This document shows, one piece after another, positions 9,001 to 18,823 of a stretch of 64,000 bases of DNA (its first letter is position 1; each line of letters starts with the position of its first letter). The stretch is taken from positions 1 through 64,000 of the IMG/VR virus record IMGVR_UViG_3300042453_005575. One strand, 5' to 3'. This DNA is from a virus. The notes under the pieces are model-generated. The model made no database searches. It had not been told where the DNA came from and worked only from the letters and a program-made list of their open reading frames with translations. The position numbers and the translations under genes are program-made.

Positions 9001-10880
9001 AGTATTCGACCGATGAAGGGCTAACTTGGATCAGTCTTAGTTCCGAAAGCCTTTCCGGAAGAATAAACATCACCGGGCTAACCAATGTAGCGAGTAATAT
9101 GGCAGGAACTTTAGGTCTTATAATTAGAGAAGTTTATGCTACTGGGTTAAAAGGCCCGGTTCCTCCTATACCAACAAACAAATTAAACCCCGCAGCCGCT
9201 CCAACAGCTTCACACTTTACGCTCAATGGCGTTGGGTCAGCGGATTGTGCTAATAGATGGAATTATAGCGGCTATACAAGCAATCCGGCCCCGGGAATTT
9301 ATGTTGCCGAAACCTTAGTTCCGACCACTCCCTGCGCGGGGGACTTTAGGCTGACAGGTGGATCATCCACATATTCAACAACAATAGGGTTTCCGTCTCC
9401 ACCATGGACATCGAGCTCAGCAGTTTTGTGTAAAGTATGGACTAACCTTTATGGTGCCACGGCGCCGACAGGCACTTATTATCACCCATCGCTCGGGGGC
9501 TCAACAAATATCTGGGTACGAATCAAACTTAGTAGTGCATCAAGTTACCCTGCGTTATCATCCGCAACACCTAGCCTTACTATGGACACGGATGAGATAT
9601 CCGGTTCAAAAACCCTCGGTGATCCAAATATCAGCTCAAATAATTCCGCGCAAGTTGTACATTATTCTGTATTCTTAGACCTCGCTACTATACGCTCAGG
9701 TTCAACAACACCAACATTCCATAGAACCTTTGGGTACGACAAAGGGATTTCTTATTCTACTAATGAATTTGCTTTACCTATACCGCCACAAACAACAAAC
9801 CCACAGATAACTATCTCACTAAACCAGGCCGCAGAACAAATGACTGTGACTTACCCGGATGGTGTAATAACCACACCTCCAACAATACTAGCTGTGGTTC
9901 CATCATACACCCAACTTAATGCTTTAACAATTTTCTTCACACCTCCTAGCGATATATATAGCAATCTAAACAGTATAACAAGATACGAATTTCGCTATAC
10001 ACATGCCGGAACAACTTATGGCTGGGAAACATTAAACGACGCAACTTCACCAATAACAACTCGAGCGATGGCTCAAGTACCAGGCGAGCAATTTAATATA
10101 CAAATTAGAGCCATTACTACGTGGGGTAAAGGAAAAGAGTCTAATTTTATGCTCGGAACAACAGGAGGAACAACAACCGCTCCTTCAGCCCGATATGTAT
10201 CAGGAAATTTAGACATCTCCTATACTTGGGACAATGATACGAGTACTTATACTGTTGTTTTAGGAATAAAACGTCCGGAAAAAACACTAAATAACCAAGC
10301 TATTGTCGGCTATCAATTCGGCGGTACTCTGAACGGGATCCCCATAACTTTTAGAACTGCGACTGTAATAAACGGGACAGCAGATTCAGAAACACCATCG
10401 CTGCGTTTCTCTTTATCAGCAGGAAGTTATGTTATAAAGATACAAGCAAACACCTCTTCGACTCTCCATGGATCCGGCTTGGGTGAACAGTCTGCGGATA
10501 TAACTTTCACAACTCCAGCAGCGCCCGCGTCTGACGCACCTGATATTTCCGGGCTTGAATACTTCCTGGAGCCCCCACCTCTTACAGGAGGCGATTATCG
10601 CTTAACTGGTGGGATATATTTTTATAATTTAAGAGGAACTATAGGTGGCTTGGAGTACAAACTAAACAACGGAGCATGGACGAATATTGACTATTATCCG
10701 ACAAATAGCATGGGGCTACCACGAACTCCTTTCTATTTATTTACTCACACATCGAACTGGTATGGACCAGGCCCCGAGCCATTACCTTACCCCGGAATGT
10801 ACCGAATAACCATTAGAATTCGATATCAAAATAGCAGCCTAGGTTATTCGCTCCCGAGCAACGAAATTCAAAATTCATAA
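3..10880 (+). CDS. Giant (>3600 aa) Ig/FN3/carbohydrate-binding repeat protein, probable virion fibre or adhesin; 5'-truncated by the window
   Basis: Frame is open from position 3 (SSYATQPGG...LPGGLTFNTTSGIIIGK). Contains He_PIG-like Ig repeats, carboxypeptidase-regulatory-like repeats, a CBM5/12-like motif (WSYGTTYQVGNLVSYQGFVYRA), many FN3 repeats (YEYSLD.G.TW...ITGL..GT.Y.VRIRA.N..G) and SusE/X25-like modules. Confidence 0.85.
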   Translation, partial: SSYATQPGGTSFSIDNTKTFTGLDPVFRPNIISGGPAIRFELLNATPLPGGLTFNTTSGIIIGKLTVNASGTYSNSIRGVNIKGPTEYIEFTINYSKFTAPVFASPQAGAIINLAYGQTYSETAPLFTAAASTIDGGSDNFAPGLTDTTRNKYTISYNNSTTSGFSMGLYTGKFVGAAANSWSPTSGDFPANITATNPAGSSTRAITLRVSRPLPPVVQTPKPNDLFTVVRGTTYTENNSILTPFATNNPTAWSASGLPSGSGLTISGSSGKLIGVVNNTLGANVYAVDIRAENSAGASPAVPIKIIVPIAIISPGLNQTIDVGVEGSIISNVDIVVSGVPAGATISYTAVTLNIAGLQLQTFTPAPGLPLSAKIIGTPTSAGLYTVVIRVSAQTSDSQNLGSVDARFFIRVQSVKSSIAGKITKDDGTTPIADAVVSLSALSRTATTNASGDYMLTDIVDGQYIASVSKAGFVFTPATQLITVNSQNISGVNFTGVEVISISGRIRTSNNIGISGVTVSTGTTSVSTNASGEYALIGVSPNQTITLIPSRSNYSFMPSRLTLQIATTSLQNQDFVGAIAYAVSGTITYGGQPANSLTPVLGTTIAARNASTKETLYFTTAAANGTFSLLLPTGSYELVPISYLLRFNPVTIDVTVGTTAVPNNNFNSVDAVSHMIRVLDAPENSQLELPISGASVRVLEGPMKDYWGLTDARGDVILHGLGTGDNNQQITQHRLQIIKQPYIFPSGDNALEITLRSLGYDQRQVTSWSYGTTYQVGNLVSYQGFVYRAQGSSGFVSLSPPNLEPSRWLSLGASFPLGVTAMTIVTPNFFTVSGKVTFSSQFVLANPNYPYANERIKLYRADIPTRDAFVAVSGAPIVSAGARTYNYIFTDVPGGEINYKLGLASPQGKTTAPIGEYSLNFFNADVTNKDFTISQLTATPPGTPSISSINPEKQALLINVATPPDNGAPITSFQVSLDNGATFVTFTSGINIPTSRFRISNLTNGTTYQVVVRAINVAGSSAWSAMVPAIPATPIYNTMYVFGLTGDLGNPSMSPPMAKLQGSSYIWKADELVRSPADTRYRYAVGPTTSEPMWGPGTGGVSPVSTTSSSWFEFLDTAQSGVYEFTFDNDLLTQSAIFKYGRPTSPTINSIITANGTAVVNFSQSTADVVASYEYSLDEGATWATVTPGTSSPAVIPGVLFGVDYRFGLRAVNIVGRSPSSPYRTIRGNIVPQPPENISVIARDGMVEVNFTPGPSVAGETVVNMKYSINGGSTFAARSPIDNRSPLFITDVTNGQTYNIQLKSSNDAGDSGAAPVPSISATPIADPSRTQMKILLNPGSASWATGAQMTKTGDYTWRGSATVTSATNVNFRFAFDSNSSVLGWGLGGEAGKVRRSNQAINLTDATIGIYEFTLNTQTQTYTVTKIVSLPQPPTLTSYITSPSTISFAFVAPEDNGGSPIIGYQYSISPTTTPASWIDLVEVVVVTAPNTPVHGRYARNGVLNGKPRYTKSDGCTIAWFTNGISKYWYISRSEANNSQDGVYYSNQSDAVTPNLVPASDWNVSPNASINLGISDIPLPPQVLLLSGGAFDDIGYYTISGLAPGVAVSLFLRSINILGAGNATNPATTIRPANLPASPTITGVTSPKDGELHIAYTPLTASTDTPITGYEYRVRQGSVYVDSNWSQFRGGLSERPGVIRELKRNTEYTVELRAFNRSGGGAVSEWTATTMDRAFTNIYLIGDHNDWSFVTRPAMVKQGTTNEWVYTMPVDDPTNKSVKFVIGSSWTDPHWGDNEGYSVLLSDNIADRDADNISIDGFGPGLYRFYFWDNTYKYDFKKICNLPDQPIITSVTISGSTATVNFRPSSYTPNNLLNPSSAITNYSYQLSYQSTTTPWTLFNPAITTSPAQITGLLSGIQYTIKMRANIPEGGGLPSDPFTFNTLLDASSTMYIVGTDDFGGFTTFSESQKMGLNQAGQFWEKTLNINSTPTSGYLEFKFATGPFGQPGQFDWGDSNQDGVAGLGEDNIRLYTSSGLGAYKITFTPSNSTYSVLFVTPVSNPPTLGTFTSTANSITLSFTPPTFTGGLPITEYRYSLNNGAFTSTSPVTQSSPITITGLTESTAYSIRLVAVTSAGSSAPSTAINASTTGPAYSSMFIIGSASELGAWNTANGPAMTSISGSGGYGWSADINFTSIGSVEFKFFVQRDFNSIGWGDGTDQDGIAEQGGNNIVRNIASAGLYRISFSTLTRAYSIQLVSSVPSAPTISAVSIPSNSTTSATLTLATSQSGAGITNYAYSLNSGTFTDISPATGSVGSITVTGLLSGTTYTARLVAKNAAGSSPASNSVEFKTPVSTMYVPGLMGSWPGSTDPFSEQNSFQMSRPTWVDDGHTWTLLAPINTLPANNNISFKFATGPNWSTGLNWGAGNLAGTAAQNGPDITHNFSSGPGVYTVTFNTRQLTYSITYSGAIQSAPSITSITPSDTSLTVNFTLGSSNGTTVTGLEYSLNGGGWQARNPQGTSSPLVITGLSLGVTYSVSIRSISNNGRSAASSTVSQTTSATLTPPFITSVSPASTTSLSVAYTASTASAGYSVTGYQYSLDNGSWLIPSGSSSSANPMVITGLTAGTFYSVRIRATGTPPSTSQPSASNTAVTAYATMYIPGLIGNFNTPFNTTGQVTMASGLGGDLHNLHNWWATHEITSTGNVSYKFAEGPSWNDDNWGVADSANPSGSLVSGGVNITRSVTTLGIYEITCNIRTLTHTFVLLSSAPAITSITSAGGQLSVNFTAPSNNPSTITSYEYSTDNGATWRARSSGATESPLVISTISGTANTTLVPGTAYQVRIRARYDGATQSYPGGAKVLNSPASTAVSATPTASTDAPSAFRVLTSTDTLTADFISPNTNQNTITNYQYSLDGGQTWTAMNPSVTSKKFDHVVLTIPYTTSQANVGVRAVTSAGTGAASSFVSVSRPTGSSVTTTLARWGSQTLRATIRVSSSNTQKNHIRGYEYSTDEGLTWISLSSESLSGRINITGLTNVASNMAGTLGLIIREVYATGLKGPVPPIPTNKLNPAAAPTASHFTLNGVGSADCANRWNYSGYTSNPAPGIYVAETLVPTTPCAGDFRLTGGSSTYSTTIGFPSPPWTSSSAVLCKVWTNLYGATAPTGTYYHPSLGGSTNIWVRIKLSSASSYPALSSATPSLTMDTDEISGSKTLGDPNISSNNSAQVVHYSVFLDLATIRSGSTTPTFHRTFGYDKGISYSTNEFALPIPPQTTNPQITISLNQAAEQMTVTYPDGVITTPPTILAVVPSYTQLNALTIFFTPPSDIYSNLNSITRYEFRYTHAGTTYGWETLNDATSPITTRAMAQVPGEQFNIQIRAITTWGKGKESNFMLGTTGGTTTAPSARYVSGNLDISYTWDNDTSTYTVVLGIKRPEKTLNNQAIVGYQFGGTLNGIPITFRTATVINGTADSETPSLRFSLSAGSYVIKIQANTSSTLHGSGLGEQSADITFTTPAAPASDAPDISGLEYFLEPPPLTGGDYRLTGGIYFYNLRGTIGGLEYKLNNGAWTNIDYYPTNSMGLPRTPFYLFTHTSNWYGPGPEPLPYPGMYRITIRIRYQNSSLGYSLPSNEIQNS

Positions 10881-14856: not shown

Positions 14857-15228
14857 ATGAATAATAGCTATTCTGAAAAAAATTATAGCGAAAGCGTAAT
14901 TTTTAATTTAAGTGAAGGAAATCATGGTGCTATTCGTGTACTCATGGATTCTTTAATAAACAACGAAAAAATAGACCCACAGAATGCTTGGGGGGCGCTA
15001 GGTTTCATACTCAACATTGCTGCTATGAATATTAGGGGCAGTAGAATTTGGGTACTCTATAAAATGGTTGGTTGCGATTTGGTCAAAGCTACAGCCATTA
15101 TTCGAGCAGCTCAACTTGGGATTATATCTAGAGCGGAGCTTAGAAGAATGATAGACTTTGAGGATGGAGCTTGCGCAGATGCGTTGTTGTGTAAAGTTCG
15201 AGAAGTGCTAGAAGACTTTGCCATGTAA
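14857..15228 (+). CDS. Hypothetical phage protein
   Basis: 123 aa; LSEGNHGAIRVL...IRGSRIWVLYK; TATAAT lies 6 nt upstream of the ATG. Confidence 0.7.
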   Translation: MNNSYSEKNYSESVIFNLSEGNHGAIRVLMDSLINNEKIDPQNAWGALGFILNIAAMNIRGSRIWVLYKMVGCDLVKATAIIRAAQLGIISRAELRRMIDFEDGACADALLCKVREVLEDFAM

Positions 15229-15280
15229 AAGCACTGAGAAAACATTTATATGTTTTCTCTTTAGCTGTTAGATAAATTTA

Positions 15281-15321
15281 TAATTTTTTGGTATAATATA
15301 TTGAACGGCACTATTGTGCTT
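15281..15321 (+). promoter_or_regulatory. Repeated promoter-like element, copy 1 (upstream of tmRNA)
   Basis: TTTTTTGGTATAATATATTGAACGGCA(C)TATT(G)TGCTT; near-identical copy at 16927-16968; contains TATAAT. Confidence 0.7.
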
Positions 15322-15360
15322 TCGCTTGATTTTTTGTTAGCGTAGTATTATATTATTTAT

Positions 15361-15786
15361 GGGGGTATACTGGCTTCGATACGTAGTCCGTGTATCATAA
15401 AACAGCCGAGGATGATTCGTTGGCCTCGTAAAAATCGAATCAAAAACTAAACGCCAATATTGAAATGGCTCCTTCTCTCGCAGAAGCTGACGCTATCCTC
15501 GAAGCCACCGGCTTTGTTGATTCCGAGCAGCTGATGGCCGCCTGACCGGCGCCATCGCTTAAGAAGGCACAGGACCGAGGATTGAGAGTAACCTCGCGGC
15601 TGCGAAACGCCGTAAAATCTCTCAAAGATGATGGTAAACCATTCCGCTCGAATATGCGTTAATTATTCCTCGACTCATGTTAGGTCTCCAGCCGACCGTA
15701 TATGAGTTTAAATAAATAAGCTGGTAAGCTGTAGCTTTTATGCTATGTTAATTACGTAGACAGGGGTTCGACTCCCCTTACCTCCA
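15361..15786 (+). ncRNA. ssrA: tmRNA
   Basis: 5' GGGGGTATACTGGCTTCGA; 3' T-arm GGGGTTCGACTCCCC and acceptor TACCTCC-A with G3.U pair; tag ORF 15453-15545 ANIEMAPSLAEADAILEATGFVDSEQLMAA*. Confidence 0.95.
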
Positions 15787-15794
15787 CATTTTAC

Positions 15795-15866
15795 TGCAGG
15801 GTCGACAAGGGGTTAAGTCACTGCGCTCATAACGCAGCATCGAGGGTTCGAGTCCCTCCCCTGCTA
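15795..15866 (+). tRNA. tRNA with CAT anticodon (Met or Ile2)
   Basis: Cloverleaf: GCAGGG/CCCTGC acceptor with 1:72 T-T mismatch, CTGCG-CTCATAA-CGCAG anticodon arm, GGTTCGAGTCC T-arm; CCA not encoded. Confidence 0.9.
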
Positions 15867-15875
15867 ATCTTTTTT

Positions 15876-16553
15876 ATGAAAAGTATATTTTATGCTCCCG
15901 TTCTTGAAACTGGGAAAAACCACCAAATATTGTTTTGGGGCTGCTTGCATTATAGGCACAATCCTAAGTGGGAAATTCCTCTATGGAAACGCCGAGGTTT
16001 TAGTAGTTCTGAAGAACATGATGCTGCAATTATAGATAGATGGAACAGCAGAGCTTCTAAAGAGACTATCGGCTTTTTACTCGGTGATAATGTTTTTGGG
16101 TATAACGCAGCTGAATCTTTTCGAAGTTTATTAAATCGTCTGGTTTTCAATCGGATATATATAATGCCTGGAAATCATCAAGCCGGGTGGAAACAAACTT
16201 TTGAATCTTTGGATGAAAATATTTATTTCGCTCAGCATGGTGGAGAAGTAGTGCTTGTTCCGAATTATTTAGAAGCTTATATTAACGGGCAAGCTGTTGT
16301 TATGAGCCATTACCCCATATTATCTTGGAATGGCCAAGCAAAAGGAAGCTGGATGTTGTTTAGCCATGTACACGGCTCTCTGAACAAGTCAGAGGTGGGG
16401 AGATTATATTTAACTAACGGGCTTAACAAAGAAGTATCCGTAGAAGCTTCACCTTATCCTTCCTCGTTCGGGGATATAAAGGAATGGATGTCTCGAAAAA
16501 CACTTTTTTCTCCGGACCACCACGAAAAAAGTAACAACACTGGTTTAATTTAA
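15876..16553 (+). CDS. Calcineurin-like metallophosphoesterase
   Basis: Motifs GCLHYRH, LLGD, PGNH, SHYP, SHVH. Confidence 0.85.
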   Translation: MKSIFYAPVLETGKNHQILFWGCLHYRHNPKWEIPLWKRRGFSSSEEHDAAIIDRWNSRASKETIGFLLGDNVFGYNAAESFRSLLNRLVFNRIYIMPGNHQAGWKQTFESLDENIYFAQHGGEVVLVPNYLEAYINGQAVVMSHYPILSWNGQAKGSWMLFSHVHGSLNKSEVGRLYLTNGLNKEVSVEASPYPSSFGDIKEWMSRKTLFSPDHHEKSNNTGLI

Positions 16554-16673
16554 AACTTTGCAAGAAGTAAAGTAATTACCCCATAATTATTTTGCTTTTG
16601 CAGATGGTGGAGAGGCGGCATAACCTGTCGTCCCTGGCGCGCCGTGACCGCCTTATGTCCGGCAACCTTTTTT

Positions 16674-16904
16674 ATGAACGTTAAAGAATTAATCGAACAA
16701 TTATCCAAACATGATCCTGAAGCTATGGTGGTAATAAGAGGCTATGAGGATGGTGTTGATGAAGCTATTAAAACCGAAGCAGTGCAGATTTCTAAATTTC
16801 CTATTGTTGAATGGTATTATGGAAAATACAGAATTGAACACCAGGCTGAGCCGAATATAAAAACAACCTCGGCTGTGTATATAAACAACGGTAAATATTT
16901 TTAG
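16674..16904 (+). CDS. Hypothetical phage protein
   Basis: MNVKELIEQLSKHDPEAMVVIRGYEDG; the ATG at 16674 is preferred to the GTG at 16644. Confidence 0.7.
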   Translation: MNVKELIEQLSKHDPEAMVVIRGYEDGVDEAIKTEAVQISKFPIVEWYYGKYRIEHQAEPNIKTTSAVYINNGKYF

Positions 16905-16926
16905 AATCAACAAAATATATTTTAGT

Positions 16927-16968
16927 TAATTTTTTTGGTATAATATATTGAACGGCATTATTATGCTT
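16927..16968 (+). promoter_or_regulatory. Repeated promoter-like element, copy 2 (upstream of the ncRNA cluster)
   Basis: Direct repeat of 15281-15321. Confidence 0.7.
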
Positions 16969-16984
16969 GTTTTTAATTTTGGCC

Positions 16985-17078
16985 GTGTGCGGCCATAAGA
17001 TAACCTCGGTAACGAGAACAAAGTGGATCGCCATCACCGTGGCGATCTGCGGGGGTCCTCGACCCCTCCGAGCACACA
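16985..17078 (+). ncRNA. tRNA-like cloverleaf RNA (non-canonical)
   Basis: GTGTGC/GCACAC-A closing stem, CTCG-GTAA-CGAG, GATCGCCA-TCACCG-TGGCGATC and GGGG-TCCTCGA-CCCC arms. Confidence 0.5.
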
Positions 17079-17093
17079 AGGAGGTAATCATTA

Positions 17094-17697
17094 TTTCTGC
17101 CTGTTGAGGGTTTTAAAGGAATAATGCTTTCCGGTTGAGACCCGGAAGGTGAGTGCTAAAAACACAATAAGTAAACCTTTAGCTGATATGCGAGCAACTA
17201 GACTGGTAATCTAGGTATCGCGTTCAGCAGCTTAGAAGTTTTCGCTGAGAAAGGCAGAGGAAACTTCAAAACCGTGCTAACCAGGCACAGGATCAGTAGC
17301 GCATCAATTCTCTCAAAAGGAGAGTTGGCGGAACCCGCGAGCACTGATTCAGGATCTCAGGTGATATCTAGCCTTCTAACAGGGGCATATAGAAACCTAA
17401 AAAGGAAAGCCTCGGGGCTTCTGCAGTGAAAGATGACTTCGTCCCAGGAAAAGCCTGGGGTTTATCGGCTCCCTAAAGCCGGTATTAATAGAGGTTAGGA
17501 TAATCTTTGGAACCTGTAGCAGGGTTTGGAGGGTGCGCAGCCTTCACAGAGAGGAACTAGCGAACAACTGTGGATGAAACCTTGATTTGGGGTAACAAAT
17601 CGTCATTGCTAGATACGTTGCAAAATAACGTGGATAAAACGGAGAATCAATATACTTCGTCAAAGCCTAGTAGTTGTAGCTGTAATCTCAGGCTGCA
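17094..17697 (+). ncRNA. GOLLD-like large ornate RNA
   Basis: About 600 nt, ORF-free and helix-dense; terminal hairpin GTAGCTGTAATCTCAGGCTGC as recalled for GOLLD 3' ends, with loop TAATCTC able to pair with GAGGTTA (17491-17497); phage tRNA context. Confidence 0.65.
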
Positions 17698-17705
17698 TTA
17701 ATTTA

Positions 17706-17778
17706 ACTCGACTTGGCGAGTATAAACAGGATGTAGGCCAAGAGCGGCAGGCTATATTTTTTACATAGCTTGCAATTC
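17706..17778 (+). ncRNA. Pistol-like self-cleaving ribozyme
   Basis: ACTCG-ACTTGG-CGAGT-ATAAACAG-GAT-GTAGG-CCAAGA-GCG-GCAGGCTAT...ATAGCTTGC-AATTC: P1, pseudoknot, AAA linker, GCG core and P3 are all present. Confidence 0.7.
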
Positions 17779-18212
17779 GGCAAGTGTGCTGCAGCATACT
17801 TTACCTCGACCGGGCTAGGCTCTAAGCGTTTGTGGAAACTTAGAATAAGTATCTGAGGTCAGGTCTCCACAGACCTGAGGCGAGATACAAACTAGTTATA
17901 CAGAGTAGACCTCGCAATCCGGCTTGCTTTGGTTGTTGCCTCTACTCATGATTTATAATTTTGGAGGATATCGAAAGAAATACATTCTATGTTTAAACAT
18001 AAAAGTTCATATACCTCCATTTCTTTTTGTGTATCTTTTTTGGTACGCAAAACCACTGGCCCAGCAGTGAAGTGCTGCAATCTGGGACAAATTTTTAGCT
18101 ATTTACTGGTTTAGCGGTATAACCTCGAACCAGGTAAATTTAATTCATAAAAACAATAGAAAGTAAAAATGAGCAACAAACTAAATTCAAACAAAGACTG
18201 GGAGGAACTCTA

Positions 18213-18491
18213 ATGATTACATACAAACCGCCAGGCAAGATTAAAATTTCAAAAGAGCGTAAAGTGGACATTATAGACATACTCGATGATATTATTGGAG
18301 ATATAGCGAATGATGCTTTTTTTAACCCCAAACTATCAGTTAATGACTCTAACTATGAGAATATCGCAAATCTCAACGATATCCACCGTGAGCTTCAAGG
18401 AATAGATTTTATTGCTGTAGAACTCCAGAAACTTAAAATCGAACGCACCAAAGAAGCTAACAATTTACTTAAAAAAATAATTAAAAAATGA
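18213..18491 (+). CDS. Hypothetical protein
   Basis: 92-aa ORF; stop overlaps the next start. Confidence 0.55.
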   Translation: MITYKPPGKIKISKERKVDIIDILDDIIGDIANDAFFNPKLSVNDSNYENIANLNDIHRELQGIDFIAVELQKLKIERTKEANNLLKKIIKK

Positions 18492-18823
18492 CTAATTATA
18501 CATTTGGCGTTATAACAAAAATTCCTTCATACAAAGAAGGCGGAAACCTCTATAGTTCTCTGATGGTTAACGAAGAAAAACAAGAAGATGGTTTTGAATC
18601 ATATAGAGAACTTAATGATGAAGACGAAGATGTAGAAAGTAGAGATAATGCAAATTTCATATGGGCACGAAGACCTACCTTTGAACTGGGAGAGATTTTA
18701 ATTCTCGACGGTGAGTATGGAAGAGAAGTTTGTGGAAAAGGGAGAAAACCCTCTAAATGGGCCGTAGAATGTATATATTTTTCGGATCTCGAAACCGCTG
18801 TTGAGCGAGCTAAAAATCTATAA
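18488..18823 (+). CDS. Hypothetical protein
   Basis: 111-aa ORF. Confidence 0.65.
   Translation: MTNYTFGVITKIPSYKEGGNLYSSLMVNEEKQEDGFESYRELNDEDEDVESRDNANFIWARRPTFELGEILILDGEYGREVCGKGRKPSKWAVECIYFSDLETAVERAKNL

Follow-up and report, generated by a model that had tools for sequence, protein, structure and literature searches.

We identified a pistol-class ribozyme fold on the + strand of a viral genome fragment, at positions 17,706 to 17,780, beginning 12 nt past the end of a GOLLD-like large RNA. The fold is conserved in a second phage, and the region around it carries no terminator-like site on its strand. That the element is a genuine pistol-class fold is close to certain. We consider it a somewhat better than even bet, judging from the sequence, that the pistol cleaves itself near 17774 and that the GOLLD molecule ends as a result. 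The element thus adds a member to a known class, with a mildly unusual cleavage junction and in a context that we did not find in print. The pistol class of self-cleaving ribozymes reportedly goes back to Weinberg in 2015.

The window, as we call the whole stretch of DNA analyzed, comprises the initial 64 kb of an IMG/VR virus record of 90,076 bp, 46% complete by CheckV. Among public sequencing runs, near-identical DNA was listed in 20, which belong to 16 studies and all carry a freshwater or lake-water label; the source sample may be one of them. From these labels we treat the fragment as that of a putative freshwater phage. An Rfam scan of the entire window at gathering thresholds returned a tmRNA, seven tRNAs, and one Pistol match (RF02679, 17706-17773, + strand). 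At 40.9 bits, this match exceeds the gathering score of 34.5, in agreement with the first-pass annotation that had proposed a pistol here, with an E-value of 4.9e-4 for the 64-kb window against all 4227 families, 2e-5 for 2.6 kb, and 1.6e-7 per record. A sensitive scan of 15800-18400 placed GOLLD (RF02032) at 17289-17694 as a full-length match with an E-value of 2.2e-41. Its score of 150.0 bits equals the cut-off of 150, and the match appears in the sensitive scan while being absent from the whole-window gathering scan. Among 20 typical GOLLD loci, 17 score 294-335 bits and the remaining three 211-219 bits, and the RNA at this locus reads as a divergent member of the family. With the pistol match starting 12 nt past 17694, the earlier description of a pistol right after a GOLLD-like RNA holds. 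The features of the region are as follows, with L124 denoting the related contig used for comparison.

16931-16980, + strand: promoter-like element, containing TGGTATAAT at 16937-16945 and a sigma-70-like site at 16935-16964
16978-17694, + strand: large GOLLD-like RNA with an approximate 5' limit; the Rfam model covers the 3' domain only (17289-17694)
17695-17705, + strand: linker from the GOLLD 3' end to P1 of the ribozyme, 11 nt (9 nt in L124, 2951-2959)
17706-17721, + strand: pistol P1 hairpin, A17706-G17710 with C17717-U17721, 5 bp
17711-17716, + strand: P1 loop forming the pseudoknot, C17712-G17716 with C17738-G17742, 5 bp; the sixth position is A-A
17722-17728, + strand: conserved AUAAA (17722-17726) plus CA, by alignment to RF02679
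17729-17732, + strand: P2 5' strand GGAU, pairing with 17775-17778; the same in L124
17733-17746, + strand: active-site strand, made up of GUAG, the pseudoknot strand C17738-G17742, and A17743, G17744, C17745, and G17746
17747-17773, + strand: P3 hairpin, G17747-U17755 with A17765-C17773, 9 bp including one G-U; loop of 9 nt
17774-17775, + strand: P3-P2 junction with the predicted scissile phosphate, placed by the family consensus
17775-17780, + strand: P2 3' strand AUUC plus GG; AAUUCGG (17774-17780) is the last sequence common with L124
17781-18212, + strand: structured non-coding stretch with no Pfam-supported ORF; a cut would release it with a 5'-OH

Every architectural element that had been listed for this pistol is present, with the pairs of each helix counted by script (MAFFT had misaligned P3 of the window against that of L124). 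P2 is as short as noted earlier, consisting of G17729-U17732 with A17775-C17778 (GGAU/AUUC, 4 bp, one of them G-U), and is A/U-rich and weak. The letters of the AUAAA, AG, and GCG core all align to the Pistol consensus. In this alignment, purine-32 and G33 are represented by A17735 and G17736, and G40, C41, and G42 by G17744, C17745, and G17746, residues whose roles we take from the available text of PMC6154101 and PMC7027511. Ten highly conserved nucleotides are counted in the class in the accessible part of Harris 2015 (PMC4604425). P1 and P3 both appear in the minimum-energy fold of 17703-17782, whose z-score is -3.08. We also read the downstream sequence by eye for a P2 3' strand lying beyond a possible insertion, and none fits.

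The comparison sequence, L124, lies on a 121,470-bp viral contig whose record is 62% complete. By blastn, L124 2241-3007 and window 16980-17751 are 81.7% identical over a stretch that begins with GOLLD and ends within the pistol, at the start of P3. In L124, GOLLD reaches 141.2 bits and Pistol 47.4 bits. The P1 loop, the P2 5' strand (GGAU), the P2 AUUC, the pseudoknot strand, and GAGCG are all unchanged, and in place of the outermost P1 pair L124 has a U-U mismatch. P3 has another sequence in L124 and still forms 9 bp, with a loop of 4 nt against 9 nt in the window. The two P3 helices have a GCAGG core in common, and the base of the L124 helix carries two extra base pairs (UU in the 5' strand, AG in the 3' strand), leaving the base of the stem paired. 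P2 is identical in the two and hence without covariation. Because L124 keeps all elements, with a different P3 that still pairs, this comparison of two independent sequences argues for selection on the fold.

Directly after P3, both the window and L124 carry AAUUCGG, and there the likeness ends. Beyond it lie about 430 nt of non-coding sequence in the window and about 1 kb in L124, unrelated apart from a 52-nt piece (18052-18103, 84.6%), the only part of 17781-18212 common to L124. These two sequences argue for a 3' border of the GOLLD-pistol unit at about 17780. Since the likeness spans the start of GOLLD to AAUUCGG and the downstream sequence differs, they also suggest that the pistol travels with GOLLD and not with what follows it. 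A contig from a lake DNA run (X10 record 6) matches the window to 17746 and then runs into a loose end like the L124 P3 plus AAUUCGG.

Several searches were made for further copies. A pattern joining the GOLLD 3' end to a pistol gave four matches in viral contigs, all due to chance when read, and a looser GOLLD-pistol pattern found L124 alone in viral contigs and a single chance match in metagenome contigs. A core-specific pattern likewise found L124 alone in viral contigs and had no match in genome contigs. By blastn, GenBank phages gave no match to 16900-18200. A neighboring protein used as bait led to one locus, 40% identical, and was of no use. A pattern for the subclass with an AUGUAR strand retrieved L034, L036, and L124 from viral contigs, along with three chance matches without P1 in genome contigs. 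In L034 (about 9800-9850) and L036, a pistol with an AUGUAG strand as in the window is followed by sequence with a T-arm-like GGGGGUUCGAAACCUC, and a tRNA-like RNA may lie behind.

The junction at which the pistol would be cut is the least regular part of the element. The pistol consensus places two unpaired nucleotides, as a rule G and U, between P3 and P2, and the cut falls between these two nucleotides. The available text of Harris 2015 describes the GU as just "modestly conserved" and the 2-nt length as "strictly conserved" across 500 pistols (PMC4604425). In the window, P3 is closed by C17773-G17747, A17774 comes next, and A17775 is able to pair with U17732. Pairing of U17732 with A17775 would leave A17774 as the whole junction, and without this pair the junction would be AA. 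With AA, P2 becomes the 3-bp GGA/UUC, and the strand from P2 to the pseudoknot has five nucleotides (UGUAG) rather than four. The Pistol covariance model deletes its last six positions in the window, which make up the GU junction together with the 3' strand of P2, and in L124 it aligns '-A' plus AUUC, with one junction position deleted.

Natural pistols for comparison came from a core-pattern scan of viral contigs, which gave at least 115 stretches. A rule-based parse of 60 unique pistols among the matches listed found a strong canonical 2-nt junction in 44 of them (GU in 33, GA in four, AU in three, GC in two, and CG and UU in one each). A strong 1-nt solution occurred in two of these 60 listed pistols, the window and L124. 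The parser is crude, with 16 of the 60 failing the strict 2-nt rule; apart from the window and L124, most of these failures (14 in all) arose from a fixed guess at an ambiguous P2 boundary. We also read by eye 29 short-P3 natural pistols among the matches listed, some of them closely related to each other; all 29 had a 2-nt junction (GU in 21, GA in four, AU in two, GC in two), and none had AA. Adenine was seen at either junction position, as AU in L016 and L021 and as GA in L019, the second copy in L026, L040, and L103. Among the same 29 listed examples, several pistols have just two to three P2 pairs, and a 5-nt strand before the pseudoknot is found in L058 and in the second pistol of L026.

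There is thus a precedent in nature for an A before the cut, an A after the cut, a short P2, and an extra nucleotide in the 5' strand. As each of its features occurs separately in natural pistols, we take AA as the working reading of the junction. The cut would then most likely fall at A17774/A17775, with C17773/A17774 as the alternative. The first-pass annotation had called the junction non-canonical. GU is indeed absent, but the label is too strong for a position that is modestly conserved and at which natural pistols have A on either side of the cut. The real oddity is that one nucleotide only stays unpaired if all possible pairs form. A literature search for pistol cleavage-site mutants turned up nothing relevant.

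The transcription context of the element can be read from its 5' side. A 50-nt direct repeat, D1, occurs at 15284-15333 before the tmRNA gene and at 16931-16980 before the GOLLD RNA (86% over 50 nt), and TGGTATAAT is contained in it ahead of both. The repeat is probably a shared promoter and leader, and its copy at 16931-16980 probably starts the GOLLD-pistol transcript. Because the likeness to L124 begins at 16980 and RNA-library contigs begin at 16977, GOLLD probably starts near 16978 from its own promoter. Metatranscriptome contigs from three runs in three studies cover 16977-17645, none of them extending over the pistol or its flanks. They place GOLLD sequence in RNA libraries, which does not in itself prove transcription, and the RNA ends are not visible in them. 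On the 3' side, a simple scan of 15200-18600 found no terminator-like site on the + strand, which makes read-through from GOLLD into the downstream sequence likely. Downstream, the next ORFs start at 18213. All five ORFs between there and 20477 lack an informative Pfam match.

Upstream of these features, a phage tmRNA lies in 15361-15866 (102.7 bits), with a predicted tag of 30 residues. Its end is placed at 15787 by ARAGORN and at 15789 by Rfam, and a tRNA-Met begins 6-8 nt later, at 15795. Seven of 20 other GOLLD loci have a tmRNA gene near GOLLD. Between GOLLD and the tRNA-Met, the ORF at 15876-16553 matches Metallophos weakly, at 18.9 bits and thus below the cut-off of 21.5.

From this arrangement we infer transcription through the pistol, a cut, the exact bond at which it occurs, and a biological use. 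The promoter-like element near 16940 would give rise to one transcript comprising GOLLD, the ribozyme (17706-17780), the stretch 17781-18212, and the genes beyond. The ribozyme would fold by way of P1, the pseudoknot, P2, and P3, and the 2'-OH of A17774 would attack its own 3' phosphate, with G17744 acting as G40 and A17735/G17736 as purine-32/G33. Since the cut of a pistol falls at its own 3' edge, GOLLD would keep the ribozyme as a tail of about 80 nt, including the linker. The tail would end in a 2',3'-cyclic phosphate, as had been predicted for a cut at this place, in keeping with the established chemistry of the class (PMC4604425, available text). The downstream RNA would start with a 5'-OH at A17775. 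In this way the pistol, rather than a terminator, may make the GOLLD 3' end and uncouple GOLLD from the mRNA. The earlier suggestion that the pistol defines the 3' end of the large RNA is plausible, since 15200-18600 has no terminator-like site on the + strand, with the amendment that the extra 80 or so nucleotides would stay on GOLLD.

In favor of cleavage, all helices and core nucleotides are present, and Pistol scores above the gathering score in both the window and L124. In addition, L176 and L204 have a tRNA 7-10 nt behind GOLLD, in the slot taken here by the pistol. Against it stand the one-nucleotide junction under full pairing, set against the strictly conserved 2-nt length in the available text of PMC4604425, an AA junction without a match among the 29 listed pistols, a weak P2, and a comparative case that draws on just two independent sequences.

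These same points at the junction bear on the leading alternative, that the element is a pistol-derived, catalytically dead module whose fold serves GOLLD as a compact, pseudoknotted 3' cap or as a docking piece and which makes no cut, a nucleotide and the G having been lost from the junction. We regard this as somewhat unlikely, though it deserves serious weight. Under maximal pairing the junction is one nucleotide short, the Rfam model deletes positions there, and among 60 parsed pistols of the matches listed the strong 1-nt junction is unique to the window and L124. The usual G before the cut is also missing, and in the available text of PMC7027511 the N2 of G53 contacts the O6 of G42 before cleavage. 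A mere scaffold would have no need of the catalytic core nucleotides, however, and these are all kept in both phages. A high-scoring natural pistol with A before the cut exists in L016 (69.4 bits), and with the AA reading the junction regains its canonical 2 nt, at the price of an extra nucleotide in the 5' strand, which has precedent. If the ribozyme is inactive, the element would be an example of a ribozyme fold retained for another use.

Cleavage that ends GOLLD can also be set against the other loci in which the two RNAs meet. The pairing of pistol and GOLLD is rare and lineage-specific, not general, as a GOLLD match was found in three of 50 pistol-bearing viral records among the matches listed (eight of 58 pistol loci were left out), pistols retrieved by regular expression lay near four of 74 unique GOLLD matches (the window, L124, L016, and L120), and none of 20 further GOLLD loci had a self-cleaving ribozyme family at the Rfam gathering score. 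The L016 pistol has the junction AU and lies directly 5' of GOLLD. L014 and L106 have a pistol with a tiny P3 and the junction CU about 1.5 kb before the GOLLD 3' domain, scoring 51.4 bits in L014. All three types of GOLLD-linked pistol are without G before the predicted cut (A in the window and L124, A in L016 and L120, C in L014 and L106), and the other pistols read have G there in 27 of 28 cases among the matches listed. The avoidance of G has a Fisher P of 0.0009 among the matches listed, a small count in which the rows are not phylogenetically independent. It may be that pistols are recruited end-makers for giant phage RNAs and that the altered junction is tuned for a slower or conditional cut, a reading that we think unlikely. 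If it were true, GOLLD could fold or assemble before release, and the ribozyme cap with its cyclic phosphate would stay part of the mature particle.

The orientation of some of these loci lends itself to another explanation, which we hold to be quite improbable, in which the ribozyme is active on behalf of the downstream RNA, providing a clean 5'-OH for an RNA or mRNA leader at 17781-18212, with GOLLD a mere neighbor. A pistol cuts at its 3' edge and so gives a near-clean end on the downstream product only, the L016 pistol lies directly 5' of GOLLD, and six loci have a conserved unnamed RNA immediately 3' of a pistol. The sequence at 17775-18212 folds better than shuffles (z -2.94); blastn of the same sequence against GenBank phages gave no match. 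What the window and L124 have in common, however, is the stretch from the start of GOLLD to AAUUCGG, and the sequence downstream differs (430 nt against about 1 kb). That the element is a functionless chance resemblance to the pistol consensus is barely credible: the score exceeds the cut-off by just 6 bits and the model finds no match for its 3' end, but the E-value is 4.9e-4 against all families over the whole window and L124 has the element at the same place with a compensatory P3.

If the pistol does cut as preferred here, its products have ends on which other enzymes could act, and the first-pass annotation had pointed to a phosphoesterase and an RNA ligase in the genome. Such genes are present. 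In the 90,076-bp record, we found an Rnl2-like ligase (PF09414) at 63702-64163 with 72.6 bits, an Rnl1-like ligase (PF09511) at 69309-69884 with 59.3 bits, and four matches to Metallophos, of which three exceed the cut-off and one lies at 66128-66571 with 39 bits; RtcB and the AAA_33 kinase had no match in the record. The Rnl2-like ligase, the Metallophos protein, and the Rnl1-like ligase lie within 6 kb (63702-69884), mostly past the end of the window, and are a possible RNA repair set. Ligase and phosphoesterase sets of this kind are usually taken as phage tRNA repair. The L124 record (121 kb, 62% complete) has no match to PF09511 or PF09414, and the idea that these enzymes act on pistol-made ends is guesswork.

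In relation to the pistol class (RF02679), the element has the same P1, pseudoknot, AUAAA, purine-G pair, GCG, P3, P2, and phage context. It differs in having A or AA in place of GU, with one unpaired nucleotide if fully paired, in its A/U-rich P2, and in its position 12 nt behind GOLLD. L016 and L120 similarly have pistol and GOLLD side by side on one strand, with a non-G before the cut (AU), but in reversed order. A cut there would give GOLLD a nearly clean 5' end, whereas the ribozyme of the window would stay on the GOLLD 3' tail. The tRNA 3' of GOLLD in L176 and L204 is a compact processing signal in the same 7-12 nt slot as the pistol of the window. tRNAs act as processing signals, their ends being cut by host RNase P and RNase Z; a pistol, in contrast, would work protein-free and produce cyclic-phosphate and 5'-OH ends. 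GOLLD RNAs are described as "often near tRNA islands" in the available text of PMC12286853. Theta ribozymes, which are minimal HDV-like ribozymes found beside phage tRNAs, are likewise small ribozymes on a phage non-coding RNA gene, but they belong to another class, cut at their own 5' edge, and have another partner RNA (PMC10879173, available text). Both they and the pistol of the window presumably form an end for the attached RNA.

In the literature we found no pistol beside GOLLD, and the supplementary alignments of Weinberg 2015 and Harris 2015 may hold such cases or cases with an A in the junction. The accessible portion of PMC5737381 has both 'pistol' and 'GOLLD' without connecting the two. 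Publications with both 'GOLLD' and 'self-cleaving' draw no connection in their titles and abstracts. The cryo-EM study of GOLLD (PMC12286853) reports a 14-mer nanocage of unknown function and nearby tRNAs, and in its available text it describes no flanking ribozyme and says nothing of how the GOLLD ends are made. A ribozyme on the 3' side gives a testable end position and end chemistry for one natural GOLLD transcript, and the GOLLD-pistol unit suggests constructs for structural work. The window and L124 also offer natural pistols with junction adenines, and possibly a one-nucleotide junction, for a test of the rule of fixed junction length.

The six loci with a pistol ahead of another RNA (L045, L053, L069, L093, L099, and L108) have a canonical pistol of 46.7-69.6 bits, and immediately after it comes non-coding sequence that is conserved over a few hundred nucleotides. 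This sequence begins with UUGGAAAUUCGGAGAGG, continues with a variable and apparently covarying hairpin, and then has GGGUCGCAUAA. The stretch matches no Rfam family at the gathering score and is possibly an undescribed structured RNA with its 5' end made by the pistol.
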